Source: a virus
Lineage: Duplodnaviria; Caudoviricetes
DNA: 58,819 nt
Direction: 5' to 3' (one strand)
IMG/VR virus record: IMGVR_UViG_3300037657_000011
Coordinates: 1 to 58,819 of that record
The translations under genes and the position numbers were made by a program. The notes under the pieces were generated by a model. It saw nothing but the letters and a program-made list of their open reading frames with translations. It did no database searches and was not told the DNA's origin. Position 1 is the first letter of the stretch, and every line of letters begins with the position of its first letter. This document shows positions 2,777 to 36,496 of this stretch, piece after piece.

Positions 2777-2801
2777 GCCCACTCGCGCGAGTGGGTTTTT
2801 T
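2777..2801 (+). terminator. Intrinsic terminator upstream of the rightward promoter
   Basis: GCCCACTCG/CGAGTGGGT stem followed by a T-tract. Confidence 0.7.
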
Positions 2802-2841
2802 GTTGCCCAAGACACCGCCATAGCTATTCACAGAATTGCTA

Positions 2842-2870
2842 TTGACAAAATCAACTATGCTGTGTATCCT
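2842..2870 (+). promoter_or_regulatory. Sigma70-type rightward promoter
   Basis: TTGACA-17 nt-TATCCT; ATG at 2877 lies at the expected +1 (leaderless). Confidence 0.7.
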
Positions 2871-2876
2871 ATAGCT

Positions 2877-3095
2877 ATGGATAAGAAACGTACCTTCAAG
2901 CTCCGCAGGCGGGTACCAGCTGCCAAGCGCCCACCGCAGTTCATTACCGTGGCGATCAGCATCCCCGTTTCACTGGCTAAGGCGTGGGAAGCCGCTGCAA
3001 ATGAGGAATACGGCGGCAACAAGTCAGCATTAGCGACTACGGCGATTAGTAAAGAAATCGGGTTCCGTGGTGACGTGGAGTTTGTCGCACAATAA
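2877..3095 (+). CDS. Ribbon-helix-helix (Arc/CopG-like) regulator, probable Cro-equivalent
   Basis: ITVAISIPVSLAKAWEAAA...NKSALATTAI: strand-helix-helix pattern; first gene of the rightward operon. Confidence 0.7.
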   Translation: MDKKRTFKLRRRVPAAKRPPQFITVAISIPVSLAKAWEAAANEEYGGNKSALATTAISKEIGFRGDVEFVAQ

Positions 3096-3194
3096 GAAAC
3101 CGACGCAACTGTGACTAGCAGGGGTGCGCCGGTTTTACGTGCATGAGGAACATGCAACTATGCCTATTATAGCGACATTTTCCTTCTTTCTCCT

Positions 3195-3239
3195 CCTCCC
3201 TCTCGGTGTCCTGGCACGCCGAGGGGGAGGCATTGTTTT
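3195..3239 (+). terminator. Possible terminator after the RHH gene
   Basis: CCTCCCTCTCGGTGT/ACGCCGAGGGGGAGG stem, then CATTGTTTT. Confidence 0.45.
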
Positions 3240-3248
3240 GGGGTTGTA

Positions 3249-3452
3249 ATGACATACATCATATTGGTACGGTATGGCGGCGAGCGATATGTGCAGGATA
3301 CACCCAAGGTTGGCAGGCGCCCACGCCTGACACAACACGGGGACGAGGCGCGCGAGTACACCCACAGCGAGGCGCAGACAGTGGCGAACCGGCTGCACGG
3401 CATGGGGTACAAGGCGACTGTTGTTGAGAGGGCGGTGCAGCATGGCGGGTAA
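3249..3452 (+). CDS. Hypothetical protein
   Basis: 67-aa ORF in a chain of coupled genes. Confidence 0.55.
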   Translation: MTYIILVRYGGERYVQDTPKVGRRPRLTQHGDEAREYTHSEAQTVANRLHGMGYKATVVERAVQHGG

Positions 3453-17611: not shown

Positions 17612-20600
17612 ATGGCTAAGGTCAATACTTCGTGGTGGACTGCGCCTAACGCGATCTCGGCATTTAACGCGAACAATGCGGCGGCGCTGGCTGCGGTGAT
17701 GAACGCGCAGAATCCACAACCGGCACAGGCGAATCAGTGGAACGCGATCGGTCCGGTCAATCCAAACGCTGCGCCTGCTATGCCTGCTTTGGGTCCGGTC
17801 AATCCAAACGCTGCACCCATTGCGCCAACACCAGCGCCATACCAGCCGGTGAACGGGTGGCTGCCGCCCAATAACGTTGATCAGAACGGTGTGCTGCAAT
17901 ACACCTACACGCCTCCGGTTGACCAGACACCGCCTCAATGGGTGCAGACGGCGGCGGAGATTGGGGATGTGCTGGCTGCGCCTTCGAGGGCGGTTAGCAA
18001 TTTGATCTTCCCTGGCAATGCCGCGTATAGACCGGATGCGCTTAAGAGCGATGTGCGGAATCTGTGGCAAGGCAAGACACCAGAATGGTTTGCGCCGGCA
18101 GATCGGTATGAGGGCATTGTGGAACGTGAACTGGCGCGCGACTTCCGCACGGCGGCTAATGCGGCGCAAGCTGGCGATGTGCGTACTGTGCTTGAGAAAA
18201 CCACCATGCAGAGTGCTGCGTCCATGATCCCGCAGACCGTGGAACAGTTCAAGCAGAACCCTAGCCTGTTGAGTGGTGTGCAAGTGGCTATGTCGGCGAT
18301 GGGAGCGATGTTGCCATTGATGCCCAAGGCGCTATTCCCTGTTACCAATGCGCCAACACAGCAGGCAGAGGCGATATTAGGCGACATTATGAGTTACGTG
18401 CCTGTGCCGGGCGGGGCTATCGGCGAGGGGCAGAAGGCGGTTGCCACGCTGGGCGGTCTTGAGCAAACGCTGCAAGACGTACCCGGCACGATGCGCAGGT
18501 TACAGGGTGAGATTGATGCGGTGAAGCGCGGCGAGAAACCACTGCTGACAATCGAGGAAGCGTCGCGCGACTATGCCAACACTATCGCGAAGGCAGTAGC
18601 GGATTACCACGGGCAAGACTTCTCATTGCCATACCGACAGGCTGGCGGTGTATTGGATCGCCCAATCAAAGGCAACCTGAACCTGTACTCCGGCGCGGCG
18701 GCGGTGCTGAGTGGGGATGACCCGACAACCATTGATGAGATTGGCAGATGGGTGGATTATCAGTCGCGCCACATTGTATTTAGTGGTCCAGACGCGCGGC
18801 GTGAGGCGATTGATCGTATCGCACACGGCGAGAATCCGCAGATTGCCATGCGTGGATTGGTAGCACCACCGAAGGATGCGCTGGATGATGAGATCGAGCT
18901 ATGGGAGCAAAGCGTACAGAACCACATGGCGGTGACTGAGCGCGTAGCGTACACGAGCGCGCGGATGGGCGGGGCAACTGACGCAGAGGCGCGCACGGCG
19001 GCGGCGGAAGTGGCGGCTGACGCAGAACGCTTTATATCCGAGTTCGGCATGATCAAGGGCGCAGAGCGTCCACTGTCCGAGGGCATACTACAAACGGCCT
19101 TTGGCTTCTCGCCATTGGACCCGATGAACTATGCCGGATTGGGTAAGCTGTTCGGGTGGCAGAGGCTATTGCCCAAGGCGCGGGCGCAAGGGCAAGCGGC
19201 AACTCTCTCACGGGTATACGAGGCTGCTGCAAAGAACGCGGCTGGCTACACGATGGCGGAGGAAGTGGCGGCGGCGAAGCGCGGTCTGTCGCCGGAGATG
19301 GTGTCGCGCGAAACGGAGGCGAAGCGGACGCTGGGACTAGACACGCAGGGCGATCAGCCTACTCCACGCGCTGAACCGACACTGGCGGACGATCTACCGG
19401 CAGAAGCGCCGGGCGCAAGCGCGAACGCATGGCAGCGATTCGGGGCGCAAGCGTATCTGCAATATGTCAAGATCGCGGAACTACTGCCGCAATCCACGGG
19501 ACACATGGTACAGGGCTATGCGATGGATATGCTGCATAACCTGACCAGAGGGGCGCGCAATGCTGCAGAAGCGGCGCGGCGGATACAAGCCTTTGTGGAT
19601 GAGCCGGGCAGCCTGGTATCGGAGATGGGGAGTGTGCCGCTATCGGTCAAGGCGGAGTTCGCGCGCCCGGTGATCCGCGATGCGATGGACGGCATTATGA
19701 AGGTGCTATCCGGCGCGGGTGACAGGCTGGATCATGGCGCGCTGCTGGAAGGCTGGCTGAAACCTACCGAGATGGCGGCGAACAAGCTGAGTAACGTCAA
19801 GCCATTGGGGGAGCGTTCGGTGCTGGAACGTTGGGGCGCTGGCGTGAAGGGCTGGCTGGGCGAGTTCGCGCTGCGTACACCTGGCTATGCAATCCGCAAT
19901 GCGATCAGCGACAGCGTGGTCATGGCGATGGATGGTGTCTATTCGCTGGACACCTACAAAGACCTGACCAAGTTCTTAGGCAAGTACAAGATTGACAGGG
20001 CGTTGATTACCGGCAAACGTCCAGAGGAGATGCGTGAATCGAAGTTAAGCCGTGTGCCGGTGATCGGCACGGTGCAGAATGCCATCGGCAGAATGAACGA
20101 AGTATGGGATGACGGCAGGCGCGTTCGCGCGTTTACTACGGCATTCCGGCAGTTCATGGGCGCGAACTATAAACCCATCATCAGCGAGGGGGCGAAACAG
20201 ATATTGGGACCGCAGTTCGGTGACGCGGTGGCGAAGCTGGAACAGATGTGGCGGACTGGATCGTCCACGCAGGAGATACGCCAGATGTATGAGGCGGTCA
20301 TCTCTCCGCGCACGGCGATGGACGACTTCAACATTATGGGCGCGCTGGAATCGCGGGGCATACCGTCTGATGCGGTATCGCCCGAGCTGGGCGCGCGGGT
20401 GTGGGGGGAGCTGCGCAGGGCAACCACGGATATAGAGGTTAATCACATCCTGGACAAGTACGAGGATATGATCATCCAAGACCAGCAGGCGCGCATGGCG
20501 CTGATGGGTGACGTGGTATCTCCGAAAGGCATCACTGAAAAGACGGTTGAGATGGACGCGGAAGAATACCGCGCGATGCTCAACAAGATAACCGAGAAGG

Positions 20601-23600
20601 CGGTGAAGGCTGGCGCAATGTCGCAAGAGGACGCGGTGAAAGCTGCGGACGAAATGGCGCGCCAGGTGTTCGAGTATGAGGTAACGATTCATAACGCGCG
20701 CGCATCCATTGGGCAGGCGTTGGCATATCTCGGTGATGGCGCGGACCTGCAACGCGCCCATGCGCTGATCGCGTATGCGATGGATATGGAGTATTCCATC
20801 CGCAACACGGCGCGCGAGAACCAGCACAAGCTATACCTGCAAACGCTTGACCGGATCAATAACACGCGCGGGATATTGCGGCGTGATGGGATCGGCATAC
20901 GCCGGGCGTGGGACGAATACCGCAGGCTGAATGACGGCGAACAACGGACGCGGTTGCGGGAGATCGCGGAGATTCATAAGTGGACGGCGGACGCGATCAT
21001 TCGCAGCAGCACGGATTGGGATGGGCTATTGAGGGAGCGCCCGGACATTGCGAAGGCGGCGAACACGGCTGACCGGCTGTTGGAACAGGCGATGGACTTG
21101 GTGCGCAAGGGCGGCGTAGAGGACTTTGAGGCGGTGCTGCTCGGCAATCGCACACGGATAGACCTGGGCAGGCGAGAGGCTTACCGGCAGGCACAGGTGG
21201 TATCACGCGCTGAACCGGAATTGGCGGCGCATGTGTTTGACGTGCTGCTATCCACGGAGAAGGATGTGCAGATGGCGGCGGCGCGCACGGTGGGATCGGT
21301 GCGGCTGGAACTGGCGCGTAAAGATGCCGGCATGATTGACCTGGCGGAATACGACACGCGGGTGAACGCGCACTGGAATCATTACTTCGACTTTGCAGAA
21401 AACCGCTATGGCAAGTACGCGCAGGCGCAGTTGCTATGGATGCAGGTGCGCAATAGCGCAGTAGCGAAGGGGATGCGCGCGCTGGGATGGGAGGATGATG
21501 CCATTGCTGACCTGTTCGGCAAGACGGAACAGGCAGAGGGCATGATTCGGGCGCAGGAGATTCTTGATAAGCGGATACGCGGCGATGTTACACCGGAGCC
21601 TAAACCTGTGCGGCGTGAGAGAGCGCCGGTAGAACCTGAACCGGCGCGGTCATTGTTGGAACAAGCGGATGAGGCTGCACCTGAAACACCGGCTGCACCA
21701 CGCCCACGGGCGGAGATAAGTTATCCGTATGACGTGGACGCGCTGGACGGGACGAAGGTGGTGCTGGCGGACGCGGTGCGCGAAATACTGGATAACAACA
21801 TCGAGAACGCGATGGATGTGGCGGCGCGCTTTAACTTGGGAGAGTATGAGGCGGGGATGCTGCTACGGGCGGCAAAGGCTACGACTGGCGGTGAGCGCGC
21901 GCCGGGCAAAGCTGGGCGCGAAGCACGGGCAGTCGGCAGCACACCGGATAAGAAGTACCGGCTGCGTCGGTGGCTGGCTGATCTGGATGACGTGATTCCG
22001 TCGAACACGGCAAGCGGCGCGGTTGATCCGCGGTATCCGGCGCATTTCCAGCCACGGGATAGAACACGGCAGGGTATGCAGCAGCAGGTTAATAAGATGG
22101 CGCTGGCGTTTGATTCGGATGCCGTCTTAAGTGACTTCCGCGTAGTGGGGCGCGGCGCGCCAACGGCTGTATCTATGAACGGCAAATGGTATGTGGTGGA
22201 TGGCAACGGCAGAACGCTACTGCTAAAGAAGATTAAACAGGATGCGCCGGAGAAGTACGCGCAATACCTGGACGATCTCAAGAGCCGGTTGGCTGAGAAC
22301 GGATTTACCGAAGCGGACCTTGAGGGGATACGCACTCCGGTGCTGATCAGTGAGTTGTTGGATGACGTTGATGTAGTGGAGTTTGCGCGTGAGGGCAACG
22401 TGCAGCAGAGTATGGCAATGTCGCCGTTCGAGGAGGCGCGCATTGATGCCACGCGCCTACTGGATGATGCCGTTACCAAGCTGGCAATCGGTGAAGATCA
22501 GACAGTGGACGAGGCGATCACGTCACTGGACAATCAGCAATTGGTGATTGGATTCATCCGCACCCTGCCGGAGACTGATCGCAATAAGTTAGTGACGAAA
22601 AATGCCACATCGCTGAACCAAGATGGCATTAACCGGTTGAAACATGCGCTGTTCGTCAAGACATACAACAGTGAATCCGGCATACGGCTGGCAGAATCGT
22701 TTATCGAGAGCGCGGATAGCGGGGTAAAGAACATCGAGAATGCCATGTTTGCCAGTTTGGGGCAGATGGCGCGCGCGGAAACGCTGGCGAATAGCGGGGC
22801 GCGCGATGCGGGGCTGGCGATTGCGGATGACTTGGCGATTGCGGTTGAGGGGTTGGCGCGGATGCGCAGGTCGAGGCAGAAGCTACTCGACTTTATAAAC
22901 CAAATACCAATTGACGGCGGTCAGGAATTGACCAAAGTACAGAAGGCATTGGTCGTTTTCTTCCACGAAAACGCCGGAGCCGTCAAGACGATGCGCGAGT
23001 TCATGCGCAACTACGCGGCGGCGGTTGAGAATCAGCCTGGCAGGGATTCACCGGGGATGCCTGGCATTGATCTTTCGATGACGAAACAGGAGATCGTCTA
23101 TAAGCTGGTCGCGGATGTGCAACGGGCAAAGGAAGATGCGGCAAAGGCGAAGCTATTTGGTGAGCCGCTCTATCCATCGCCGTATGACAGTGCGGTTAAT
23201 CCGCGAGAAGCGGCGGACGTGAGTGTACCAACGGAGGCAGACAGTGGAAGGACATTCGATAGCCAACACGCATATCGAGTTGCTGGACCCGGAGAAGATA
23301 CGGGAGTTGACGGACGAGATGCTACTGCAGGAGATGGAGTTTTACGGGCTGACACCATTTCTATTGAAGTTGAAACTAGACCTGACACAACTCCCGAAAT
23401 GGCGCGAGTTGGCAGAAACCTTGTTGCTGACCTGGAATTACAGGATAGATCTAACCAAGCGGGGCAGGCTGTACGTGCAGGAGAGAATGGGCAGACCGGT
23501 GTACGGCGGCAAGGCAGAGTAACTACTGTCGCCTCGCGGTTGGCGGATTCGCTGCGCATTGATGGCACAGCATCACTCATTGGGCAGAGGGTACAAACCG

Positions 23601-26600
23601 CGCAAGACCTCGGCACACTGGCGCAGGTGTTCCGTGATCCACGCTACGAAACTGCGCGCTACTTCTTCATTGACGTAGATGGCAAGGTCATCGGGGAAAC
23701 CGGCGTGTCCTCACGCCTGCCTGGTATCAGCGTTATTGCGCCGGAAGGCGTAGAAGACGATATTGCGTGGCTCAAGGGACTGATAAAGAGCCACAATGCC
23801 GCACAGGTATGGCTGATGCACAATCACCCCAGCGGCTATGTCAATCCTAGCCAACCCGATATGCAGGGGACGGCGCAGATCGCACACGCACTAGGCGAAG
23901 CCTTTGGCGGTCACATCATTATTGACCACAATAAGTTTTTGATGATGACGCGCAAGATGGACGTTCCTATTGAGAGTGGGGGGCGCTTCTTGAATTTTTT
24001 CAATGTCGAGGAAGTGAGAGTACCCACCAGTGAGCCAACGGATGCGGAGGTAGCCGACTTTGCGGCAAGGCAAACGCCGGAACACCTGCAAGAGATCGAG
24101 GCTATTTATGATCGTGATCCGGTTATTGCGATCAGACACATTATCAGGCAAGATAAGCAGACTGATCCGCTGCTGAATCGGGAACCGGGCGATGTAAACA
24201 TAGGCTGGAAAGTGCCTGGTATGGGGTCAGACTTCGCGCGCAACCTGTTCTACATTGGAAAGCAGTACATGACCGGAGATCATCCTGTGTTGATGGGATT
24301 GGGCGCGGATTACACATTGCAAGCCATCGGAACACAGGTCATCGAGGATATCCGCGCACAGGATGGGATGCGGATTGCGGCGCAGATACGCGCGTTTGGG
24401 CGCAATAACGGGGCGCGGCATGTGGCGATGCTGATACCGAAAAATTTGGCGGACCTGAGTCAGGACGACTGGCGGCTGATTGACTTCTCGATCACCACTA
24501 AACTGCTGATGGATGTGGTCACGGTGGATGGGCGCAGCGTGAGGAGCAATTCAGAGGCAAGCCCTTCTGCTTGGATGGAATCGCAAGGCGTGGAGTTGGG
24601 GACGATACCGAAGGGGCGCACACTTTGGGACCCCGGAACGCAGATAGATATGTTCGGCAACTACGTCTTTGACGATGCGCCGAAACCGGCAGAACAACCA
24701 CGGCAAGCGGCGCAACCGGCACGGCAAGAGACACCTCGGCAGGCGGCGCCCCAGCAGCAGGCAGAGACACCTCGGCAAGCAGAACAACCACGGATGGCGG
24801 CGCAGGCTGAACAACCACGGCAAGCGCAACCAGAGACACCACGGGCGGCGCAGATACCGGCAGAGCCGAAGCAGGTCACGGCTGAGAACATCACAACCCA
24901 AGATGCCATTGAGATGTTGCAGGATGGGAGGCTAACCGGACACCAGCTTAATGAGATTGGTCCGCTGTTAAAGCAGGAAAAGCTAGTCCAGCGAGCTATC
25001 GGCGGGGGCATAGATGGGGAGCGCGTGTATGTAACGCCGACTGGCAAGCAGGTTCGCTACACCGATACGCGCGTTTATCGGTTTAACAATGGCAAGACAG
25101 CGAAGATAACGCTGACGGGATTTGACCGTGAGCATATGTCCATCAGCCACGATCTATATGAGATACCTGATCTCACATGGGATGGGGCGGATGCACTCAA
25201 CCAGCAGTTGAGGAATAGCCCGGTCATCCCGTTTGAGCAGGATCAACGGGCGCGCATCGCGGACGTGCTGAACGAAACGAAGCCGATGACGCGCGCGGAT
25301 GTGCGCGGGGCGCTTGAGGCGGTGGCGCGGGGTGAACTGGATCCCGAGATGGTAAGCGCGGCAGTCAAACAGGGCATAGAGGATATTGAACGCAGAGCCG
25401 CGCCGGTGCGCAGAACGGGAGTGTACAAGCTGCCGGATGGGACGGAATTGCAGTATGACGGCGTGGGCTTGCTGGGCGGCAGCGGGTCATATCGGGTGAC
25501 GCTGTACATGCATGATGCCGATGGCAACCAGAAAACGATTTATCAGTTTGCGCCTGCGAACCTGACGGCAGCATCGGCGCAGCGGTCCGCGCTATTGCGG
25601 CAGATAACTGGAAGTGGTACAACTATTACAGGGGGCGCAAATGCTAGACCAACTACTACCCAACCAAGAGGAGCAACCGCAGGAGATACCGCCCGAACTG
25701 GCGGGGCAAGGGGAACAGGCACTACCGCCCGAACTGGCGGCGCTGATGCAGCAGCAGGGGCAAGCGATGCCGGACGAACTGGCAGGGCTGTCAAACCCAC
25801 CAAGCGAGGATCAGATGATTCCTGGCTCGGCGGACTCTTTGCCCACATCCCCGATGAGCAGCCTACCGCTACCCGTGGACGAACTGAGCCAACCACGGGC
25901 GGAGCTGATGCCGCAGGAAGAACCGGCGACAGCGGAGGACGACGATCCCTGGCAACTGAAACACCCGCACCAGATACCGCAACACGCCTCGATCAAGGAG
26001 GAGATACGCAAGCAGTGGAAACTGGCGGATCCGAAGCGGTACAAGGCGCTGGTGAAGAAGGGGGAGCTGGAAGCGGAAGTGCAACTGGCACACGACGAAC
26101 ACGTCCAGACGTTCGGGGCGTACATCGAGGCGGGAGCGGGGTATTACCCGGCATTGGAGATGGCACGGGCAACGTGGAAGTGGGAGACACCGGAGGAAGA
26201 ACACCCGCTGGACAAATACTCGATCAAGAAGTACGGGATACCGATGCCGGAATACATGCACGAGGGGGACGAGGAAGCGGAGAGGATAATGCGGGAGTAC
26301 CGCAAGACACATCCCTACGCCTAGACGATGCGCCGGACAGCCTCAAGGCTGAAACCGAGGCGGTGCGAAATGACGAAGCCAGGGCGATTGATGAGGCGTG
26401 GAGCGCGCTGACTGACACAGAGCGCGGACAGTTTACGGACTGGCTGACCACCAGCACACACCCCATCGCAGGCGAGAAAGTTCCACTGGCAACCAAGTAC
26501 CATATCCTCTCGCGCGTGTTTGCAGATGAGATCAATGATGAGCCGCGATCGGTCCGGCGCGGCAATGGCAACTACGACTACCTCATCACGGAGAAGGATG

Positions 26601-29600
26601 CGATAGGCGCAGGAGGCGCGCGCACCAAGTACAAAGCCAACATCGAGGCAATCCGCATCCTCAAGGCAATTGAGGAAGAAGGCAGATACGCTTCGCCGTA
26701 TGAACAGGCGGCGCTGGTGCGGTATGTCGGTTGGGGCGGCTTGTCTCAGCCGGTGAACACGCTCAAGTATTACCCTGATTGGCATGACGCACAGCGCGAA
26801 GTGCGCGGTATGCTCACGCCGGCAGAACTGGAATCGGCGGGATTGTCCACGCCAAACGCGCACTTTACCAGCATCCCCATTGTTGATGCGATGTGGGGGA
26901 TCATGCAGCGGTTGGGCTTTGGCGGCGGGAGAGTGCTGGAACCGGCTGGCGGGATTGGTCACTTCCTCGGCAGGATGCCGCGCGATGTGTACGCGAAGTC
27001 CACGATGACGCTGGTCGAGATGGATAGCCTGACGGCGCGCATTGCCAAGCAGTTGTATCAGAACGCGGACGTTCACGAGAAGCCGTATCAAGAGGCGCGC
27101 ATCCCGAACAACTGGTTTGACCTGAGCATATCGAATGTGCCGTTTGGGAACTACGCGGTCTATGATCCAGCCTTCCGCGATAACAAGGCGCTGACAAGCA
27201 GCATCCATAATTACTACTTCGCCAAGTCGCTTGAGCATGTGCGCCCTGGCGGGGTGATCGCTTTCATCACCAGCCGGTACACAATGGATTCGATGGGCGC
27301 TGAAGTGCGGCAGTACATCGCTGATCGGGCGGAGTTGATCGGCGCGTTCAGACTGCCCAATACGGCGTTCGAGGGTAACGCGAATACGAACGTCACCACG
27401 GACGTGCTATTCCTGCGCAAGCGCGCGCCGAGTGAGGAAAAGACCGGACCGGCGTGGGTCAAGACGGTGAAGCAAACTGATCCGGTAAGTGGGCGCGAGT
27501 ACGACATCAACGAGTATTACGCGAGTAATCCCGATATGCTGCTGGGGCGGATGGAAGTGACCGAACACGGCAACACATCCGGCAATGAGTGGCAACCGAA
27601 CCTGATGCCGACACGCCCACTAGAGGAAATGCTGCCGGAAATTGTGGCGCGCTTCCCCGAGAACATCTACACCGAGGGCATCCACGTCGAGGCGGAGGAA
27701 GCGCAGATGGTGGCGGCGATGGCGGAGTTCAAGCTAAAGAAGCGTGTTGTCGAGGGGCAATACATGGTGATGGACAGCAGGCTGCACAAGGTTGTGAAGG
27801 GCGCGCCTGTGCCAGTGCAGTTTGACGTGCATAAGACGGCGGCGCTATCGGATGGCGCGCGGCTGGTCGAATCGCTGCAAACCACGCTGGCGGAGATGAT
27901 GAATCCGAACAGCACGGATACCAGCATCGGTACGCACCAACAGACGCTTAACACGCAATACGATACGTTTGTGAAGCGGTACGGCAGGGTGAACGATGCG
28001 AGAGTGGCGGAGTATTTTGCGGATGATCCCCTGTATCCACGCCTGTTGAGCCTTGAGAAGAAGAACGAATGGGGCGCATGGGATAAGACGGACGTATTCA
28101 GCAAGCGCGTAGCCGGCGCGGGAATTGCGATCACGCAGACGGACAGCGCGCAAGAGGCGTTGTATGCGTCACTGTTCAAGCACAATAGCGTTGATCTCGG
28201 CTACATCAGCCAACTGCTGCGGCGCGGACGCGATGAGACGATTGAAGCGTTGGGGGAAATGGTGTACCACGATCCTGACGGGATGTACGTGACGAAGGCG
28301 GAATACCTGTCGGGCGATGTAGTGGGCAAGCTAGAGGAGGCGCGTGTCGCGGCAAAGACGGATGAACGATACCAGCGCAACGTCGAGGCGCTTGAGAAGG
28401 TGCAGCCTGAGCGCATCCCTGCGGGGAAGATCACCGCGCGGTTAGGGTCGCCGTGGATTCCTCCTGATGTGATCGAATCGTTTATTACCTCACTCAGCGG
28501 CGCGAAAGTGGCGGTCGAGCATATTGACGGCACGACTGACTGGAACATCAGTATCAAGCAAGCTGGCAAAGAAGACATGATGTTGCAGTACCAGACACCC
28601 GACGTTAGTTTCATGTATCTGGTGCGGCAGGCGTTGGCACTCAAGCAGCCTACCGTTACATTTAAGGATGCTGAGGGCAGAGAGCATATTAACCAAAGAG
28701 CAACCGAGGCGGCGCGCGAGAAGCAGGCGAAGATCAAAGAGGCGTTTGAGAAATGGGTGTGGCGTGATCCGGCGCGCATGGGGCGGCTGGAAGATTTGTA
28801 CAACCGGACGTTCAACTCGTATATCCCGCGCACATGGGATGGGGCGCACATGCAGTTTCCGGGGATGAACCCGCAGATCACGCTCAACCCACACCAGAAG
28901 GCAGGCGCATTCCGTATTGTGTCGGGGCAGAATGTTTACCTGGCGCATGGCGTTGGAACGGGCAAGACGTTCACGATGATCGCCGGTGGGATGGAATTGC
29001 GGCGGTTGGGCTTGCGCCGTAAGCCGATGTATGTTGTGCCCAATATGATGTTGGAACAGTTCGAGCGAGAGTTCAAGCTGCTGTATCCAATGGCGAACAT
29101 TCAGGTCATCAGACCGGACGACTTAACGCCGGTGAAGCGTCCGCGTATGGTGGCGCAGATCGCAACCAGCGATCTCGACGGCGTGATTGTGTCGCACGAG
29201 ACATTCGCGCGCTTCCCGGTTAGCGCAGAAGCACGGGCGGAGTTCATGCGCAAACAGATCGCTGACCTGGACGATATGATGAAAGGTCGGGGCGATGAGA
29301 AATCGTGGCGTTTCAAGCAACTGCAAAAGCAAAAGCTGGATTTGGAGGCGCGGCTGGAGAAGATGCTATCCGGTAAGAAGGACGACGCTACGCTGTTCGA
29401 GGAGTTGGGCGTGGATCAATTGTTCGTGGATGAGGCACATGCGTTTAAGAATCTGCGCTACACCACACGGCTGGACGGCGTAAAGGGCATGGGATCACCA
29501 GAGGGCAACATGAAAACGATGGATATGATGCTCAAGGTGCGCTTGCTCAATAAGATGAATGGCGGCGGCGGCGTGGTTTACTCGTCCGGCACACCAGTAT

Positions 29601-32600
29601 CGAACTCGCTGGCAGAAACATACACCATCATGCGCTACCTGCAGCCAGACACGCTTGACCAGTTGGGGCTGCGGACGTTTGACGCATGGGCGGGATCGTT
29701 TGCGGAAGTGGTGGAATCAATGGAGAAAACCGCGACTGGCGCAAAGAAGTCGGCGCGGCTGAGTGGTTATGTGAACATGCCGGAGCTGCGTTTCCTGATG
29801 AGCGAAACCACGGACATTAAGACACAGGACACGCTCAAGCTATCCGTGCCGAAGATCGAGGGCGGCGAACCGCAGTCGGTTGTCGCTGAGAAGTCGCCGG
29901 AGATGAAAGCGATCATCGCGGATCTGGTGAAGCGCGCCAAGTATCTTGAGCAGAATCCCGGCGAGGCAAAGAAGAAGGGCGGAGATAACATCCTGGTCAT
30001 TAACGGCGATGCGAAGGCGGCGGCGCTCGACATTCGCACTTACGCGAAGGGCTTGCCGGATGTGCCGGGGAGCAAGCTGAACACCGTGGTAAAGAACGTG
30101 TTGGATATATACCAGCAGACCAGCAATTACCACGGGACACAGATGATCTTCTGCGACTTTAGCAAGCCGAAGAAGCACGGCGGCGGACAGCGCACGGGAT
30201 TCAGCGCCTACGATGACATTATCGAAAAGCTGGTTGCGGGGGGCATCCCGCGTAATGAGGTCGTCAGCATCTACGATTGGGACACGCCACAAAAGAAGGC
30301 GCAACTCAATAAGCTGGTGAACGAGGGTAAGGTGCGCGTGGTGCTGGGCAGCACGGATAAGCTAGGCACAGGCACAAACATGCAGCAACGGTTGTATGCG
30401 GCGCACCATTTGGACATTCCGTACACACCGGCAAAGATGGAACAACGTAATGGGCGCGTGGTACGGCAAGGCAACCTGCACGTCCAATGGGACAAGCCGG
30501 TGAAGGTGCTGAACTACGTGACCAAAGGCACGTTTGACGAGGTTATGTGGGCGCTGCTGCGAAAGAAGGGATCGTTTGTCGCCACGTTCATGAGCGAGAA
30601 ACCGCTGGGGCGCAAGGGCGTGGATGATAGCGCGTTGGTGCTGAACGCGCGGCAGATGGAGATGGCATCGTCTGACGATCCAACCATGCTGCGCCAGGCA
30701 GAACTAGAGAACGACATACAGCGATACGAGAACCTACACGCGGAATATCTGTACCAGCGGCAACAGAACGGAGTGCGGATCAGCCAGGGCGAAACAAAGC
30801 TGGAACGGCAGCGGCAGGACGCGCAGGTTTTATCACGGGCGGCGGCGACATACCGAACTGAGAAACAGAAGCCGTTTAGTATGCGCTGGAACAACGAGAC
30901 ACACTCGGCATGGATTGACAAGAACGCGCGCACGACTGTGAATAACGCGATGATCGCGTGGGCGAAGGATCCCGGCGAAGCGCCTCCGGCTGGCGAGGTC
31001 AAGCCGCTGGGCGAAGTGCAGGGCTTGCGGCTGGAATGGGATGGCAGATATGATTCGCCGGATGCCAAGTTCAGGGGAGTAGAACACCTATTCCATGCGT
31101 CACCGGAAGGGCGCAAGATGATCGAGGCGCAGATGGAAGTGGGACCGGTGATCCGCGTGGTATCGGATTACTACGGCGGCGAGACTGTTGGCAAGTTCAT
31201 CCTATCGCCACGGGACGGCGCGCAAAACATTACGCGGTTGGAGAACATACTGACCGGGTTAGAGGCGCGGAAAGAGGCGGCGATCAACAGTATGCGCGAC
31301 ACGGAGAACCTACTGCGCGAATTGCGGATGCAGATGGCACAGCCGTTTGAGCATGATATGGTGTGGGATCGCTCGAAGGTGGAGCTGGCAGACCTCAAGA
31401 GCAAGTTCAGCGTACAGGACGAAGTAATTGACGAGGTGGACGCAATCGAGCGCAATGAGGATTACACGGGGCGCGAGGCGAAGGTATTCCAGGAGGAGGG
31501 CGCGCCTGATCCGTATGCCGCGCTCAACGATGAACAGATCGAGGCGGCGGCGCTGGCGGATGCGCCTGTGCCGGTGGATGGACTGGTGGCGCAGGATGCA
31601 GACGCGGAGATGACCGGCAATACCGGCGAGACACACGCGCACCAAAGCCTGCTCGACTATGTGACCAAACAGCAGCTTGAGGCGTTGAACGCGATACGCG
31701 ATGGGGCGTTGAAGCATCTCGGAGATGCGCCCAAACGCACGAAGCCTACACTCTCGGCGGATCAGTTGAAGGTGCTAGAGGCGGAAGTGCAGCAGGCGGT
31801 GCGGCAGTTGAATGAAACCGTGGACGCTGGTAAGACTTATGCCAATGAGCGCAGTAACTTCGCGCTGATGGACTACGGCAATAAGCGCGGTTTCGATCTG
31901 TGGCTGTCGTCTATTGCGCCGTTCTACTATTGGGCGACACGCCAGGGCAGAAACTTCATCCTGCGCGCGTTGGATAATCCGCAATTCCTGATCGCCTACT
32001 GGCGCTACAAAGAGGCGATGAAGAAGCACAACAAGCGGCGCGGCACACGCAAGCGGTTTGAGACTGCGTTCCGCATCCCTACGCGCGATCTGACTGGCGG
32101 GGCGATGGATGATGTGTATTGGGATCCGACAAGCGCGCTGTTCCCGTTTGACCAGATGTACGGTGAGGGATATGACGAGGAGGCTACTGGACTGCAGGGG
32201 ATGTACAACACGGCAAGCCAGTTCGGTATGCGCCCACATCCGGTGATTGACGTGCCGCTGCGACTGACCGGCGCGCTGACCAGTAAGTCACCCAACCAAG
32301 AGGGGTATGAGGCAGAGCAGGCGGAATGGGGACCGGGCAGCGTGGGTAAGCTGCTGCAACAGTCCAGCTTGGTGCAAGCGGTGTCGGCGGCGCTGGGCAT
32401 GGGTCCGTCTGGAATGGGGATTAATCCCGAGTCGCCGTTGCGTAAGGCGCTGGGGCTGACTGAGACAGAAGGGTTTGACGCTTATCGTGTGGGGCGGTCA
32501 ATCTCCAACATGGCGGCGGAACAGAACAAAGCCTACGGGGAGCAGTTTGACCGCAGACCATACCTCGCGGCGCAGGAGTTTGTCGCCAAGCATGTAAGCG

Positions 32601-34360
32601 ATCTGCCCACGGCGCTGACCAGCATGAAGCCGGCAGAGATCGCGGCGGAATTGGGCATTGATCCGACAATGGCGGCTTACGCGCTGCAAGTGGCACAAGC
32701 CGCGGCGCGGATGGCGGCGCAAGAGCGCGGGACAAGCCAAGTGGCGAGTATCCTGGGCGGACAGCGGCTTGTCGCGCATCCGCAAGGGGAGTATGAGCGC
32801 GCCGAAATGAGCCGACAGGAACGCGGCGCGGCATGGAATCCAGCCACACAACAGGGCAGCCGGGTGGATGTGCAAGCGGTACAGCGCGCGAATCCGGCGC
32901 TGGAAGTTCAACGGGCGCAGTATGGGACGCTGCCTGGCGAACAGAGCGATTACCGATGGCTGTATGACCGCGCGATGCAGGACGAGATCAATACCAAGTT
33001 TGACGCGCTGAAAGAACAGGTGATCGTAATGCGTCCGTGGGATCGCAAGGCGGGATATGCGATTGAAGATGCGCGGCGCGCTGCGCTTGATCGCGTGGAC
33101 CGCGACAAGGTGAGTAGCACGGCGGCATGGCAGGACGACTATCTCAGGGCGATGAACGCAACGGCTGGCACAAACGCGGTTCCGCAATCGGTATCACCGG
33201 CGACGGCGCTACAAAGCTACAAACCGCGCAGCGTGGCGGGGGCGAATCCAACGGAGAAGTTGGAGATACGGCAGCAGGAGATCATGCAGCAGGTTAGCCG
33301 GACGCAACCACGGGCTGAATCCTTTATGACACCACAGGGCGAGATTGACTACAAAGCCTACCGGATGGCGCTGGACGAGTGGCGCGGATCGCTGGGCAAA
33401 GTGGCGGCTGGACTACCGGCTACACAGTTGATCATGGCGAAGGCGACAGAGGAAGGCAATGCGGCGACGATGAAACAGTTTATGGCTGGGCTGACCGGCG
33501 ATCAACTGGATCAATATCGCTGGCGGTATGACACGCCACTAGAGGCGGCGCAACGGACGTACTACGAGGCGATCTACACGCCAGTCATGGAGGCATATGT
33601 CACCATGCGCGATCAGGGCGATACCGAGGCGTGGGATAAGACGATTGGGGCGGTGGGCGCAATCGCCGGACCGATGCTGGCAGACCTGACTAACCGACTG
33701 TATCAGGGGCGGTTCACGCCTGAGCAGTTGGCGGAAGTGCAGCGGATTAACATACCGGCGATGGCGGAAGTGATGCGGTTGAATCAGGGACCAGAAGCGA
33801 AGGCAAAGACGGCGGCGCGTGATGACTTCTGGAACACCTATAACAATGGGATACCGCCAGGGAGCGCGGCATACGAGATCAAACAGAATCCGCTGGTGGC
33901 GCTGATACTGGACAGGGACAGCCGAGGCACAGCCACAACGGAACAGTACGAGATAGCATCGGCATCCATGCGGCAATACGTGGTGCAGAACTACGGGGGA
34001 GTGCAGCCGGAATGGACGCAGGCGCGCCAGGAGAAGACGGATTTGGATAAGGCGCTGTCAGCGCAGTACGGGGCTGATGCTCCGGCGCTGGTGCAGGCGT
34101 ATGACTTCGCGGGTAACGCTGAACAACAGGCGGCGCTACGGGCGCAGTATCCGATTCTGAACACGATCTTGTTGATGCGGTATCAGTATGAGCAGGCGCA
34201 TCCGGTGTACGCGCTGTACTACTCGCGCAAGGTGGCGAAGTCTGAGCAAGCCGGAGTGGGGATCGCGGCGCCTGCTGGCGCTGCGCCGAGTGGCGGCGGC
34301 ACAACTGATACGCGCACGAGCGAGTTGGGAGTGTTGAAAGTGCGCAAGGTCGGCAGATAG
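17612..34360 (+). CDS. Giant 5582-aa polyvalent DarB-like virion protein: DdrB-like ParB, JAB/RadC, N6-MTase and SNF2 helicase domains
   Basis: FQPRDR/GAP/VVDGNGR (~21950-23100); HNHPSG..PSQPD (~23820); VLEPAGGIG and NVPF (~26930-27150); AHGVGTGKT, DEAH, QRNGRVVRQGN (~28940-30480). Confidence 0.9.
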   Translation: MAKVNTSWWTAPNAISAFNANNAAALAAVMNAQNPQPAQANQWNAIGPVNPNAAPAMPALGPVNPNAAPIAPTPAPYQPVNGWLPPNNVDQNGVLQYTYTPPVDQTPPQWVQTAAEIGDVLAAPSRAVSNLIFPGNAAYRPDALKSDVRNLWQGKTPEWFAPADRYEGIVERELARDFRTAANAAQAGDVRTVLEKTTMQSAASMIPQTVEQFKQNPSLLSGVQVAMSAMGAMLPLMPKALFPVTNAPTQQAEAILGDIMSYVPVPGGAIGEGQKAVATLGGLEQTLQDVPGTMRRLQGEIDAVKRGEKPLLTIEEASRDYANTIAKAVADYHGQDFSLPYRQAGGVLDRPIKGNLNLYSGAAAVLSGDDPTTIDEIGRWVDYQSRHIVFSGPDARREAIDRIAHGENPQIAMRGLVAPPKDALDDEIELWEQSVQNHMAVTERVAYTSARMGGATDAEARTAAAEVAADAERFISEFGMIKGAERPLSEGILQTAFGFSPLDPMNYAGLGKLFGWQRLLPKARAQGQAATLSRVYEAAAKNAAGYTMAEEVAAAKRGLSPEMVSRETEAKRTLGLDTQGDQPTPRAEPTLADDLPAEAPGASANAWQRFGAQAYLQYVKIAELLPQSTGHMVQGYAMDMLHNLTRGARNAAEAARRIQAFVDEPGSLVSEMGSVPLSVKAEFARPVIRDAMDGIMKVLSGAGDRLDHGALLEGWLKPTEMAANKLSNVKPLGERSVLERWGAGVKGWLGEFALRTPGYAIRNAISDSVVMAMDGVYSLDTYKDLTKFLGKYKIDRALITGKRPEEMRESKLSRVPVIGTVQNAIGRMNEVWDDGRRVRAFTTAFRQFMGANYKPIISEGAKQILGPQFGDAVAKLEQMWRTGSSTQEIRQMYEAVISPRTAMDDFNIMGALESRGIPSDAVSPELGARVWGELRRATTDIEVNHILDKYEDMIIQDQQARMALMGDVVSPKGITEKTVEMDAEEYRAMLNKITEKAVKAGAMSQEDAVKAADEMARQVFEYEVTIHNARASIGQALAYLGDGADLQRAHALIAYAMDMEYSIRNTARENQHKLYLQTLDRINNTRGILRRDGIGIRRAWDEYRRLNDGEQRTRLREIAEIHKWTADAIIRSSTDWDGLLRERPDIAKAANTADRLLEQAMDLVRKGGVEDFEAVLLGNRTRIDLGRREAYRQAQVVSRAEPELAAHVFDVLLSTEKDVQMAAARTVGSVRLELARKDAGMIDLAEYDTRVNAHWNHYFDFAENRYGKYAQAQLLWMQVRNSAVAKGMRALGWEDDAIADLFGKTEQAEGMIRAQEILDKRIRGDVTPEPKPVRRERAPVEPEPARSLLEQADEAAPETPAAPRPRAEISYPYDVDALDGTKVVLADAVREILDNNIENAMDVAARFNLGEYEAGMLLRAAKATTGGERAPGKAGREARAVGSTPDKKYRLRRWLADLDDVIPSNTASGAVDPRYPAHFQPRDRTRQGMQQQVNKMALAFDSDAVLSDFRVVGRGAPTAVSMNGKWYVVDGNGRTLLLKKIKQDAPEKYAQYLDDLKSRLAENGFTEADLEGIRTPVLISELLDDVDVVEFAREGNVQQSMAMSPFEEARIDATRLLDDAVTKLAIGEDQTVDEAITSLDNQQLVIGFIRTLPETDRNKLVTKNATSLNQDGINRLKHALFVKTYNSESGIRLAESFIESADSGVKNIENAMFASLGQMARAETLANSGARDAGLAIADDLAIAVEGLARMRRSRQKLLDFINQIPIDGGQELTKVQKALVVFFHENAGAVKTMREFMRNYAAAVENQPGRDSPGMPGIDLSMTKQEIVYKLVADVQRAKEDAAKAKLFGEPLYPSPYDSAVNPREAADVSVPTEADSGRTFDSQHAYRVAGPGEDTGVDGRDATAGDGVLRADTISIEVETRPDTTPEMARVGRNLVADLELQDRSNQAGQAVRAGENGQTGVRRQGRVTTVASRLADSLRIDGTASLIGQRVQTAQDLGTLAQVFRDPRYETARYFFIDVDGKVIGETGVSSRLPGISVIAPEGVEDDIAWLKGLIKSHNAAQVWLMHNHPSGYVNPSQPDMQGTAQIAHALGEAFGGHIIIDHNKFLMMTRKMDVPIESGGRFLNFFNVEEVRVPTSEPTDAEVADFAARQTPEHLQEIEAIYDRDPVIAIRHIIRQDKQTDPLLNREPGDVNIGWKVPGMGSDFARNLFYIGKQYMTGDHPVLMGLGADYTLQAIGTQVIEDIRAQDGMRIAAQIRAFGRNNGARHVAMLIPKNLADLSQDDWRLIDFSITTKLLMDVVTVDGRSVRSNSEASPSAWMESQGVELGTIPKGRTLWDPGTQIDMFGNYVFDDAPKPAEQPRQAAQPARQETPRQAAPQQQAETPRQAEQPRMAAQAEQPRQAQPETPRAAQIPAEPKQVTAENITTQDAIEMLQDGRLTGHQLNEIGPLLKQEKLVQRAIGGGIDGERVYVTPTGKQVRYTDTRVYRFNNGKTAKITLTGFDREHMSISHDLYEIPDLTWDGADALNQQLRNSPVIPFEQDQRARIADVLNETKPMTRADVRGALEAVARGELDPEMVSAAVKQGIEDIERRAAPVRRTGVYKLPDGTELQYDGVGLLGGSGSYRVTLYMHDADGNQKTIYQFAPANLTAASAQRSALLRQITGSGTTITGGANARPTTTQPRGATAGDTARTGGARGTGTTARTGGADAAAGASDAGRTGRAVKPTKRGSDDSWLGGLFAHIPDEQPTATRGRTEPTTGGADAAGRTGDSGGRRSLATETPAPDTATRLDQGGDTQAVETGGSEAVQGAGEEGGAGSGSATGTRRTRPDVRGVHRGGSGVLPGIGDGTGNVEVGDTGGRTPAGQILDQEVRDTDAGIHARGGRGSGEDNAGVPQDTSLRLDDAPDSLKAETEAVRNDEARAIDEAWSALTDTERGQFTDWLTTSTHPIAGEKVPLATKYHILSRVFADEINDEPRSVRRGNGNYDYLITEKDAIGAGGARTKYKANIEAIRILKAIEEEGRYASPYEQAALVRYVGWGGLSQPVNTLKYYPDWHDAQREVRGMLTPAELESAGLSTPNAHFTSIPIVDAMWGIMQRLGFGGGRVLEPAGGIGHFLGRMPRDVYAKSTMTLVEMDSLTARIAKQLYQNADVHEKPYQEARIPNNWFDLSISNVPFGNYAVYDPAFRDNKALTSSIHNYYFAKSLEHVRPGGVIAFITSRYTMDSMGAEVRQYIADRAELIGAFRLPNTAFEGNANTNVTTDVLFLRKRAPSEEKTGPAWVKTVKQTDPVSGREYDINEYYASNPDMLLGRMEVTEHGNTSGNEWQPNLMPTRPLEEMLPEIVARFPENIYTEGIHVEAEEAQMVAAMAEFKLKKRVVEGQYMVMDSRLHKVVKGAPVPVQFDVHKTAALSDGARLVESLQTTLAEMMNPNSTDTSIGTHQQTLNTQYDTFVKRYGRVNDARVAEYFADDPLYPRLLSLEKKNEWGAWDKTDVFSKRVAGAGIAITQTDSAQEALYASLFKHNSVDLGYISQLLRRGRDETIEALGEMVYHDPDGMYVTKAEYLSGDVVGKLEEARVAAKTDERYQRNVEALEKVQPERIPAGKITARLGSPWIPPDVIESFITSLSGAKVAVEHIDGTTDWNISIKQAGKEDMMLQYQTPDVSFMYLVRQALALKQPTVTFKDAEGREHINQRATEAAREKQAKIKEAFEKWVWRDPARMGRLEDLYNRTFNSYIPRTWDGAHMQFPGMNPQITLNPHQKAGAFRIVSGQNVYLAHGVGTGKTFTMIAGGMELRRLGLRRKPMYVVPNMMLEQFEREFKLLYPMANIQVIRPDDLTPVKRPRMVAQIATSDLDGVIVSHETFARFPVSAEARAEFMRKQIADLDDMMKGRGDEKSWRFKQLQKQKLDLEARLEKMLSGKKDDATLFEELGVDQLFVDEAHAFKNLRYTTRLDGVKGMGSPEGNMKTMDMMLKVRLLNKMNGGGGVVYSSGTPVSNSLAETYTIMRYLQPDTLDQLGLRTFDAWAGSFAEVVESMEKTATGAKKSARLSGYVNMPELRFLMSETTDIKTQDTLKLSVPKIEGGEPQSVVAEKSPEMKAIIADLVKRAKYLEQNPGEAKKKGGDNILVINGDAKAAALDIRTYAKGLPDVPGSKLNTVVKNVLDIYQQTSNYHGTQMIFCDFSKPKKHGGGQRTGFSAYDDIIEKLVAGGIPRNEVVSIYDWDTPQKKAQLNKLVNEGKVRVVLGSTDKLGTGTNMQQRLYAAHHLDIPYTPAKMEQRNGRVVRQGNLHVQWDKPVKVLNYVTKGTFDEVMWALLRKKGSFVATFMSEKPLGRKGVDDSALVLNARQMEMASSDDPTMLRQAELENDIQRYENLHAEYLYQRQQNGVRISQGETKLERQRQDAQVLSRAAATYRTEKQKPFSMRWNNETHSAWIDKNARTTVNNAMIAWAKDPGEAPPAGEVKPLGEVQGLRLEWDGRYDSPDAKFRGVEHLFHASPEGRKMIEAQMEVGPVIRVVSDYYGGETVGKFILSPRDGAQNITRLENILTGLEARKEAAINSMRDTENLLRELRMQMAQPFEHDMVWDRSKVELADLKSKFSVQDEVIDEVDAIERNEDYTGREAKVFQEEGAPDPYAALNDEQIEAAALADAPVPVDGLVAQDADAEMTGNTGETHAHQSLLDYVTKQQLEALNAIRDGALKHLGDAPKRTKPTLSADQLKVLEAEVQQAVRQLNETVDAGKTYANERSNFALMDYGNKRGFDLWLSSIAPFYYWATRQGRNFILRALDNPQFLIAYWRYKEAMKKHNKRRGTRKRFETAFRIPTRDLTGGAMDDVYWDPTSALFPFDQMYGEGYDEEATGLQGMYNTASQFGMRPHPVIDVPLRLTGALTSKSPNQEGYEAEQAEWGPGSVGKLLQQSSLVQAVSAALGMGPSGMGINPESPLRKALGLTETEGFDAYRVGRSISNMAAEQNKAYGEQFDRRPYLAAQEFVAKHVSDLPTALTSMKPAEIAAELGIDPTMAAYALQVAQAAARMAAQERGTSQVASILGGQRLVAHPQGEYERAEMSRQERGAAWNPATQQGSRVDVQAVQRANPALEVQRAQYGTLPGEQSDYRWLYDRAMQDEINTKFDALKEQVIVMRPWDRKAGYAIEDARRAALDRVDRDKVSSTAAWQDDYLRAMNATAGTNAVPQSVSPATALQSYKPRSVAGANPTEKLEIRQQEIMQQVSRTQPRAESFMTPQGEIDYKAYRMALDEWRGSLGKVAAGLPATQLIMAKATEEGNAATMKQFMAGLTGDQLDQYRWRYDTPLEAAQRTYYEAIYTPVMEAYVTMRDQGDTEAWDKTIGAVGAIAGPMLADLTNRLYQGRFTPEQLAEVQRINIPAMAEVMRLNQGPEAKAKTAARDDFWNTYNNGIPPGSAAYEIKQNPLVALILDRDSRGTATTEQYEIASASMRQYVVQNYGGVQPEWTQARQEKTDLDKALSAQYGADAPALVQAYDFAGNAEQQAALRAQYPILNTILLMRYQYEQAHPVYALYYSRKVAKSEQAGVGIAAPAGAAPSGGGTTDTRTSELGVLKVRKVGR
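23244..23522 (+). CDS. Candidate overprinted gene 1, +1 frame inside the giant gene
   Basis: GGAGG 6 nt before GTG; helical globular-looking 92-aa product; host frame is linker-like here. Confidence 0.5.
   Translation: MEGHSIANTHIELLDPEKIRELTDEMLLQEMEFYGLTPFLLKLKLDLTQLPKWRELAETLLLTWNYRIDLTKRGRLYVQERMGRPVYGGKAE
24684..24870 (+). repeat. Coding repeat (QPRQA/ETPRQA units) in the giant protein
   Basis: Repeated AACAACCACGG and AGACACCTCGGCA units. Confidence 0.7.
25641..26324 (+). CDS. Candidate overprinted gene 2, +1 frame inside the giant gene
   Basis: AGGGGG before ATG; 227 codons open; ordered C-terminal domain; host frame is a G/T/R/D-rich linker over the same span. Confidence 0.65.
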   Translation: MLDQLLPNQEEQPQEIPPELAGQGEQALPPELAALMQQQGQAMPDELAGLSNPPSEDQMIPGSADSLPTSPMSSLPLPVDELSQPRAELMPQEEPATAEDDDPWQLKHPHQIPQHASIKEEIRKQWKLADPKRYKALVKKGELEAEVQLAHDEHVQTFGAYIEAGAGYYPALEMARATWKWETPEEEHPLDKYSIKKYGIPMPEYMHEGDEEAERIMREYRKTHPYA

Positions 34361-35332: not shown

Positions 35333-36496
35333 ATGGCTACTGGACCACGTACTACATTCCACGACACCAGTTTGCAAGAGCGAACTGTGGTGGAATACTT
35401 CGATCTTTTGTCGCCCAAAGAGTCCATGTTTCTGAAGGCGATCTCAGGCGGATCGCCGGATAAGCCGGGGCTGAACAGCCTTTCGATGCCGTGCGAATCC
35501 AAAAAGTACGAATGGCTAGAGGATGAGGATCCACCGTTCGTTTCGACGTTGGACACCGCGCTGAGCGACAGCGACACCACGCTTGACCCAACGGCTACTC
35601 ATGTGGAGTACTTCGTGCCCGGTTTGATCTTCTCCATTGATGACGAGTACATGATCGTGGCACAAGCAAGCACTGTTGGGAGCAATCCCACAATCGAGCG
35701 CGCGTATGCCGGCACTGCGGCAGCGGCGCACGATGCAGGGGCTGAGATTCACATGTACGGCAACGCCTCGCTGGAAGATGCCGACTTTAAGGGCACCTGG
35801 ACGAAGGAACTGACCTCGCCGTACAACGTTACGCAGTTGTTCGAGCAGACGATCCTTGTCACCGAGATGGCGCAGGCAATCAAAACCTACGGCATCGATA
35901 ACGCGCTGGAACGCGAAACGGCAACCAAGACGCGCCGCATGATACGCGAGATGAACCGCGTGGCGTTCTTCGGCAAGCGATACGCGGGCACCGCAAGCAA
36001 GCCTTCGATGATGGGCGGTTTGAATTACTACATCCCCAGCGTCAATGTGACAGACCTCCTCGGTGGAACGCTCGAAACGGAACACATTGCTACTGCGATG
36101 CGGAACATCTTTGATCGGGTGGGCGCAAGCAACGTACCAGACACGATCATCTGCAATTCCGTAGCGCGCGAGCGCATGACAAAGGTGTTTGCAGCGTCGG
36201 GCGTGGTTCGGTACAGCGAGGAACGCGAACGCACCGCAGGGATGGTCATTGATCACATCGTTACGCACTTCGGCACGTTTGACATTTTGTTGGATCAGGA
36301 CTGCCCACAGACCACGATCTACCTGGTGAAGCTGGACCAGATCGGCTTTGGACCAATGGCAGGTATGCCGATGAGGCGTATGCCCCTCGCCAAGAGTGGA
36401 CCCGTGGACAAGTTCGGCGTGTACGGCACGTACACGATGGAAGTGCGCAACTCTCTGTCTCATGCCGCGATTAAGAACATCGCGCAGACGATCTAG
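35333..36496 (+). CDS. Major capsid protein (SU10/DUF5309-like, with insertion domain)
   Basis: KYEWLED, YNVTQLF..TILVT, MGGL, PLAKSG...YTMEVRN pattern; AGGAG RBS. Confidence 0.85.
   Translation: MATGPRTTFHDTSLQERTVVEYFDLLSPKESMFLKAISGGSPDKPGLNSLSMPCESKKYEWLEDEDPPFVSTLDTALSDSDTTLDPTATHVEYFVPGLIFSIDDEYMIVAQASTVGSNPTIERAYAGTAAAAHDAGAEIHMYGNASLEDADFKGTWTKELTSPYNVTQLFEQTILVTEMAQAIKTYGIDNALERETATKTRRMIREMNRVAFFGKRYAGTASKPSMMGGLNYYIPSVNVTDLLGGTLETEHIATAMRNIFDRVGASNVPDTIICNSVARERMTKVFAASGVVRYSEERERTAGMVIDHIVTHFGTFDILLDQDCPQTTIYLVKLDQIGFGPMAGMPMRRMPLAKSGPVDKFGVYGTYTMEVRNSLSHAAIKNIAQTI

Follow-up and report, generated by a model that had tools for sequence, protein, structure and literature searches.

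A long open reading frame (ORF) lying wholly within a larger viral gene raises the question of whether the same DNA serves to encode two proteins, or whether one of the two frames is open without a product. Such a case is presented by the IMG/VR virus record IMGVR_UViG_3300037657_000011 (Duplodnaviria; Caudoviricetes), a complete record, 58,819 bp long and bounded by direct terminal repeats, which was analyzed in its whole length and is referred to here as the window. Its giant gene, encoding a DarB-like polyvalent protein, contains a 227-codon ORF in the +1 frame, just ahead of the part that corresponds to a methylase-helicase module. A first-pass annotation had proposed that this is a hidden gene and that the linker read in the frame of the giant protein is a by-product of it. 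The evidence described below, which comes from sequence comparison and modelling, leads us to conclude that the ORF is very probably a genuine overprinted gene, nested on the same strand, and that both readings are kept.

The nested ORF lies entirely inside the giant gene, on the same strand and in another frame, with an offset of +1 ((25641-17612) mod 3 = 1). Beginning at 25608, the +1 frame has no stop until the TAG at 26322-26324, which amounts to 238 codons from stop to stop, and the ORF list includes an upstream alternative start, GTG 25614 (25614..26324). The next-longest same-strand ORF in an alternative frame spans 112 codons in the giant gene, and 168 codons in any of the 18 plus-strand ORFs. 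When the giant-frame codons of this stretch were shuffled, the +1 frame remained open in 0 of 20,000 shuffles, with 8.4 stops expected, and when 228 codons were drawn randomly from the rest of the giant gene it was open in around one of 20,000 draws (5e-05), which upholds the initial claim of a 227-aa gene in this frame. Base composition at third codon positions points in the same direction: within 25600-26350, the G+C content at these positions (GC3) of the giant frame goes from ~0.70 to ~0.40, and the +1 frame shows GC3 values of 0.63-0.78 and a proportion of T at third positions of 0.02-0.06. A codon model trained on 15 other plus-strand ORFs of the phage was applied in 240-nt steps of sequence along the 16.7-kb giant gene; frame 0 wins everywhere except in two stretches where the +1 frame is preferred, 25532-26431, which spans the nested ORF in full, N-terminal extension included, and 23132-23611.

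The second of these stretches holds a 99-codon +1 ORF (23223-23522), placed between the ParB-like and JAB domains, with a GTG at 23244 preceded by GGAGG. No Pfam match was obtained for it, nor any relative in the collected loci described below (best tblastn E 0.13). It may be a second nested gene.

The purine-rich ribosome-binding site that had been noted ahead of the nested ATG corresponds to a Shine-Dalgarno (SD)-like AGGGGG with a 5-nt spacer, and the same G-rich type of SD is present at the giant gene's own start at 17612 and at gene 37266. The predicted product, designated P0001, had been described as having a Q/P/E-rich N-terminus with PPELAG-like repeats; its first 100 aa are indeed acidic and rich in P, L, Q and E, with the motifs IPPELAG, LPPELAA and MPDELAG, under which Tandem Repeats Finder identified no tandem repeat at the DNA level. 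An ordered C-terminal domain had also been anticipated, and AlphaFold2, run with the alignment of the family described below, gave a confident four-helix core (predicted local distance difference test, pLDDT, of 95-98 over P0001 120-179, corresponding to model residues 21-80), followed by a further C-terminal helix. Read in the giant frame, the same DNA is translated into the G/T/R/D/A-rich linker that the first-pass annotation pointed out, these five residues making up 68% of it vs 40% of the whole giant protein. The nested stop precedes by 255 nt the methylase homology, which starts at ~26579, so that the gene does end shortly before the methylase-helicase module, as stated at the outset; in most relatives the distance is within ~130 nt.

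Direct searches with P0001 provided limited information on its relatives. A word-indexed protein search at near lengths returned only P0001 itself, tblastn gave no match in GenBank phages or PLSDB plasmids, and scans of viral contigs and metagenome contigs did not confirm any relative; a scan with the 400 aa of the giant protein upstream of the nested region found none either. With HMMER, a search of 1.84 billion representatives yielded one credible match, a stand-alone 139-aa protein (P0006, E 7.9e-4); a match to a repetitive 522-aa protein (P0005) was regarded as spurious. The exact P0001 sequence has been called as a protein on two Logan contigs that start at window position 25013, but these contigs are identical to the window and the call is therefore no independent evidence. 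Structure-based searches returned no convincing match: with Foldseek, the AlphaFold2 model reached a best E of 2.2 against the PDB, the best hit in a wide VIA-align search (2apl; Z 6.0, root-mean-square deviation 3.8, 68 residues) is in a range common for helical bundles, and the best match in the BFVD fold search was the unconvincing Q8W6J4_2 (E 0.066), which may be orf33 of Sinorhizobium phage PBC5. In the ESM Atlas, unnamed clusters were retrieved at 0.86-0.89 and, at 0.78, one in which 11% of the members carry TnpV, all of which we take as leads only.

A clearer picture was obtained from the giant genes of other viruses. A scan based on the alignment of two methylase sequences produced 80 viral loci, with 44-51% identity to the methylase part of the giant protein, which together with the window make up the 81 sources considered here. 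A distant giant with 44% identity (L002) contains, in the linker preceding the methylase, an ORF in the +1 frame whose translation resembles P0001 weakly (BLASTP E 0.007), and direct BLASTP links at E<=1e-3 connect the window ORF with the nested ORFs of four others (L031, L036, L065 and L072). In iterative profile searches, the ORFs of the +1 frame that end close to the methylase gathered into a single family, with a core of around 80 residues that can be written as L.P.G.E...YW....PK.Y.....G.L...L......D....L...G.....A.E..R.E.Y. Searching all six frames with the family profile, matches were found in 68 of the 81 sources, all on the plus strand and all in the +1 frame with respect to the methylase, with none in the other five frames. 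The profile had been trained on +1 ORFs only, which came from 62 of the 68 matched sources; the six sources outside the training set (L046, L048, L049, L052, L066 and L070) matched in the +1 frame as well. When a held-out profile was built with the nested ORFs of 54 relatives, excluding the window, and compared with the 1,127 six-frame ORFs of the window, the nested ORF was the sole match (E 4.6e-9). When 34 cluster representatives were compared by BLASTP, the similar pairs numbered 118 of 561 in the nested frame (four of them involving the window), vs two in the giant frame and none in the third.

This nested ORF is placed just before the methylase module in 62 of the 68 sources, whatever sits upstream. 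Stop to stop, the ORFs of the relatives measure 71-200 codons, the window copy being the longest of the 68, with a ~100-aa N-terminal extension and a C-terminal extension beyond the family core. As for its identity, the proposed likeness to TnpV holds for the family, with 25 of the 55 aligned members matching the Pfam model PF14198 at E<=0.01 (best 3.9e-39; the nested ORF of L082 scores 46.9 bits, the cut-off being 27), but the window's own protein stays below the 27-bit gathering score, PF14198 gives nothing in the window at E<=10, and the connection is made through the profile of its relatives. On such transitive evidence only, P0001 would be a divergent member of the TnpV family. Outside viruses, tblastn against plasmids gave one Brucella record with the L065 nested ORF and no match with that of L082, an outcome from which we draw no conclusion on plasmids or conjugative elements.

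The pattern of substitutions in the relatives indicates which frame is under selection. In 13 non-overlapping related pairs, 255, 227 and 381 differences were counted at nested codon positions 1, 2 and 3, respectively, the least variable being position 2, which is the third position of the giant frame. As a control, these pairs were also compared over the methylase region, where the differences at giant positions 1, 2 and 3 were 604, 417 and 1919 (these sums include the pair L051/L054, aligned over 9 codons only, the L054 methylase match not being at 4001). Amino acid identity is also higher in the nested frame than in the giant frame, which shows the same identity as the non-coding third frame. 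The frame-specific comparison that had been recommended thus reveals purifying selection on the nested frame in the relatives. This pattern, along with the absence of stops in the giant frame, implies that both readings are maintained; selection would keep the protein sequence in the nested frame and only the absence of stops in the giant frame. The notion of a dual-coding region with the linker as by-product is in agreement with these data, codon usage, homology and the signature of purifying selection all residing in the +1 frame and the giant frame being only stop-free.

The absence of stops could also arise by chance if what appears as one giant gene were in fact three, an upstream effector gene, the tnpV-like gene and a methylase-helicase gene, with frame 0 happening to be open across the middle one. 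Shuffling the nested codons of the window alone leaves the giant frame open in 7% of cases, and in several relatives (L040/L075, L038, L041 and L011/L012) the ORF in the methylase frame begins 0.6-1.5 kb before the methylase match. However, none of the 68 sources has a stop in the giant frame along the nested ORF, and this frame is open in all 34 clusters defined at 50% identity, compared to 3.7 expected from codon shuffles, while the third frame contains 288 stops vs 272 expected; both frames are therefore open beyond chance. There is, moreover, no frame-0 stop where the upstream gene could end, the frame-0 starts after the nested stop have weak SD sequences (4/6 for GTG 26363 and 3/6 for the first ATG, at 26810), and distant relatives also show one continuous ORF through the site. 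Considering all this, a division into three genes is very improbable.

An alternative way of reaching the +1 frame would be a programmed +1 (or -2) ribosomal frameshift, by which the upstream half of the giant protein would end in the TnpV-like domain. An arrangement of this kind is seen in Sinorhizobium phage PBC5 (L087/L089, locus 2742-3318), whose giant is divided: a 2,185-aa upstream ORF carries the domain in frame as its C-terminal end and terminates at that point, and the methylase frame has been open since 259 nt ahead of the TnpV-like match. Because of this arrangement the PHROG profile phrog_938 (length 2,185) matches nested ORFs at its positions 2081-2161. PBC5 could represent a natural variant due to a single indel, an actual frameshift site or a mistake in an early deposit with an AF-series accession; the first and the last of these would say little in favor of frameshifting. 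Against this mechanism, most copies of the nested ORF have their own start signals. An ATG precedes the core in 59 of the 68 nested ORFs, and a perfect AGGAGG is found within -20..-3 of the ATG in 25 of the 68, and 45 match it at 5/6 or better, the respective values for control ATGs of the same loci (n=10,411) being 0.38% and 7.5%, so that independent initiation is favored over frameshifting. In addition, a stop located a short distance upstream of the domain closes the +1 frame (ORFs of 71-238 codons from stop to stop), and there is no stop in frame 0 at which ribosomes could pause. A frameshift is, in our opinion, improbable.

The nested ORF is not restricted to uncultured viruses. Using tblastn with the L065 nested ORF, 20 GenBank/RefSeq records were identified, each with its match under the giant gene, corresponding to phages of Vibrio, Pseudomonas, Erwinia, Agrobacterium, Sinorhizobium, Ochrobactrum and Klebsiella; the name given in RefSeq to the giant of the cultured relatives is "DarB-like antirestriction". 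In phages VvAW1, Pavtok and LASTA, the annotated coordinates place the match in the +1 frame inside the giant coding sequence (CDS). None of the four records that were opened (VvAW1, Pavtok, LASTA and Atu_ph08) has a nested CDS annotated, in accordance with the suggestion that standard gene callers would overlook it. This does not hold without exception, since the two Logan contigs cut the giant gene and the gene caller did call the nested ORF once the giant was truncated. In Pseudomonas phage Itty13 (L086, MW460249), three long CDSs are annotated opposite the DarB-like giant and the nested ORF, which probably reflects a mis-called strand in a G+C-rich genome.

Besides the 7% of shuffles and the PBC5 arrangement already mentioned, several other observations weigh against a genuine nested gene. 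The product is a prediction from sequence. No close relative of the window copy was found in the collections searched and, with three sequencing runs identical over the nested gene (see below), selection on this particular copy is deduced from distant relatives only. Neither P0001 nor its residues 100-227 match Pfam TnpV, 13 of the 81 sources have no match to the family, and the excess of differences at position 3 of the nested frame is modest, ~1.5-fold. In the six loci outside the training set, the nested gene is 0.9-3.5 kb upstream of the methylase match, which weakens the idea of a strict linkage with the methylase. The lack of near relatives of the exact window copy could be accommodated by a chance or decaying open frame that yields no product. 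Such an explanation is nonetheless extremely improbable, given that no shuffle leaves the frame open, that codon usage is gene-like, that the profile of the relatives retrieves the ORF and the fold is predicted with confidence, and that the family as a whole is conserved and shows a pattern of selection typical of coding frames.

With regard to the context of the nested gene (Table 1), the giant protein carries ddrB-ParB and RadC/JAB domains in its upstream half and, in its downstream half, an Eco57I-like methylase followed by ResIII/SNF2/Helicase_C, according to Pfam matches of which SNF2-rel_dom and Helicase_C are above the cut-off and ResIII and Eco57I below it. This fusion of an N6-adenine methylase to an SF2/SNF2 helicase in a protein of the virion module identifies it as a DarB-like polyvalent protein. 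GC skew is positive across almost the whole genome, and along the giant gene there is also a strongly positive AT skew, a pattern that fits with nearly all genes being on one strand. Three groundwater metagenome DNA runs carry the window stretch, with contigs that are identical over the nested gene. The window may originate from these runs, and no RNA run was listed as carrying the stretch. Two of the three DNA runs also contain a minor contig that differs by four substitutions (T>A, A>C, A>G and A>G) at 24958-25012, within the giant gene and ~630 nt upstream of the nested start, where the assemblies break; these four are the only differences between the runs, and there is no variation within the nested gene. 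A sequencing error was discarded as the origin of the two open frames because the three independent assemblies agree, and an intein or intron-like insertion because the giant frame is continuous and the length of the linker varies.

Table 1. Coordinates of the nested gene, its parts and the surrounding features in the window.
Feature	Position	Strand	Remarks
Nested gene (predicted product P0001)	25641..26324	+	ATG to TAG, 227 codons; +1 frame of the giant gene
Shine-Dalgarno-like AGGGGG	25630..25635	+	5-nt spacer before the nested ATG
N-terminal P/L/Q/E-rich extension with PPELAG-like motifs	25641..25940	+	Absent from most relatives; the +1 coding signal already begins here
Conserved TnpV-like helical core	25992..26186	+	P0001 ~118-182; profile alignment, AlphaFold2 helices, family alignment
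Giant-frame reading of the nested DNA	25640..26323	+	Linker; stop-free, not conserved
Giant polyvalent DarB-like ORF	17612..34360	+	5,582 codons/aa (16.7 kb); ORF list and Pfam matches
Methylase-helicase module of the giant gene	26579..30473	+	Directly 3' of the nested gene; Pfam, alignments, match offsets
Major capsid gene, SU10_MCP type	35333..36496		~1 kb downstream of the giant gene

If the ORF is indeed an overprinted gene, ribosomes would start on the giant mRNA at the internal SD sequence and the ATG at 25641, read the +1 frame and make a 227-aa protein composed of an acidic, proline-rich N-terminal tail, a four-helix core of the TnpV family and a short C-terminal helix, while for those coming from 17612 these 684 nt would, in frame 0, be an unconserved linker joining the ParB/JAB effector half of the giant protein to its methylase-helicase half. 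The tnpV-like gene is probably the older of the two readings, the linker of the giant having arisen by read-through of it, because the nested frame uses codons as the other genes of the phage do and TnpV exists as a stand-alone family. The location of the nested gene just before the module in most sources makes it possible, rather than probable, that the small protein is co-expressed with the methylase-helicase module as an accessory factor, with nesting preserving the physical linkage between both; the roles put forward in the first-pass annotation, namely chaperone, inhibitor or packaging partner of that module, are conjectures along these lines. A further proposal, which we consider rather unlikely, is that nesting is an old, selected design, in which a stand-alone tnpV-like gene was read through as the effector genes became fused to the methylase-helicase gene, and the small protein is an obligate partner that, for example, holds the module inactive or escorts it into the capsid, linkage and co-expression being guaranteed. 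TnpV would then be the first candidate regulator of DarB-type anti-restriction.

The existence of the nested gene would mean that many phages, including cultured ones of Vibrio, Erwinia, Klebsiella, Pseudomonas, Agrobacterium and rhizobia, hide an unannotated protein-coding gene inside their largest gene. It would constitute a clean and widely replicated example of dual coding in bacterial viruses, in which a folded protein is specified by one frame and no more than a spacer by the other, and it would provide the uncharacterised TnpV family with a fixed genomic partner, the DarB-type methylase-helicase, with which its function could be tested. From a practical point of view, any edit, knockout or CRISPR interference directed at the linker of the giant would also strike the second gene. 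The window copy, being the longest and having a unique acidic N-terminal extension, would mark the outer range of the family.

In comparison with known systems, P0001 resembles the TnpV proteins (PF14198) of mobilisable transposons of the Tn4451/Tn4453 type in being a small helical protein of mobile elements. It differs from them in having twice the usual length and an acidic N-terminal extension, and in that it is nested in a phage virion-module gene instead of being encoded by a stand-alone gene beside that of the TnpX serine recombinase. A role of TnpV in excision is only postulated, from its likeness to lambda Xis (PMC3158075). The outer gene shares with the DarB-like polyvalent proteins the methylase and SF2/SNF2 helicase dyad, ddrB-ParB and JAB, and the kinds of domains described for polyvalent proteins of phages and conjugative elements are those found in the giant (Iyer et al., 2017; PMC5512222). 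A term search of the main text of that article gave 0 occurrences of "TnpV", "overlapping" and "frameshift", so the nested gene is not part of that published description. Judging the literature by titles and the beginning of abstracts, no paper was found that describes a nested TnpV-like gene in a DarB-like giant; nested genes have been described before, as have TnpV and DarB-like giants, and it is their combination that is apparently undescribed in the literature found. A parallel in terms of architecture is that of the spanin genes of lambda, in which Rz1 is wholly embedded in Rz, on the same strand and in the +1 frame, and both are functional. Unlike that pair, the one presented here is predicted from sequence, any functional link between the two products being conjectural. 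The outer gene is also of a different sort, a 16.7-kb virion or anti-restriction polyvalent gene, and whereas in lambda the outer reading is a functional domain, here it is an unconserved linker and, of the two genes, the inner one is apparently older.

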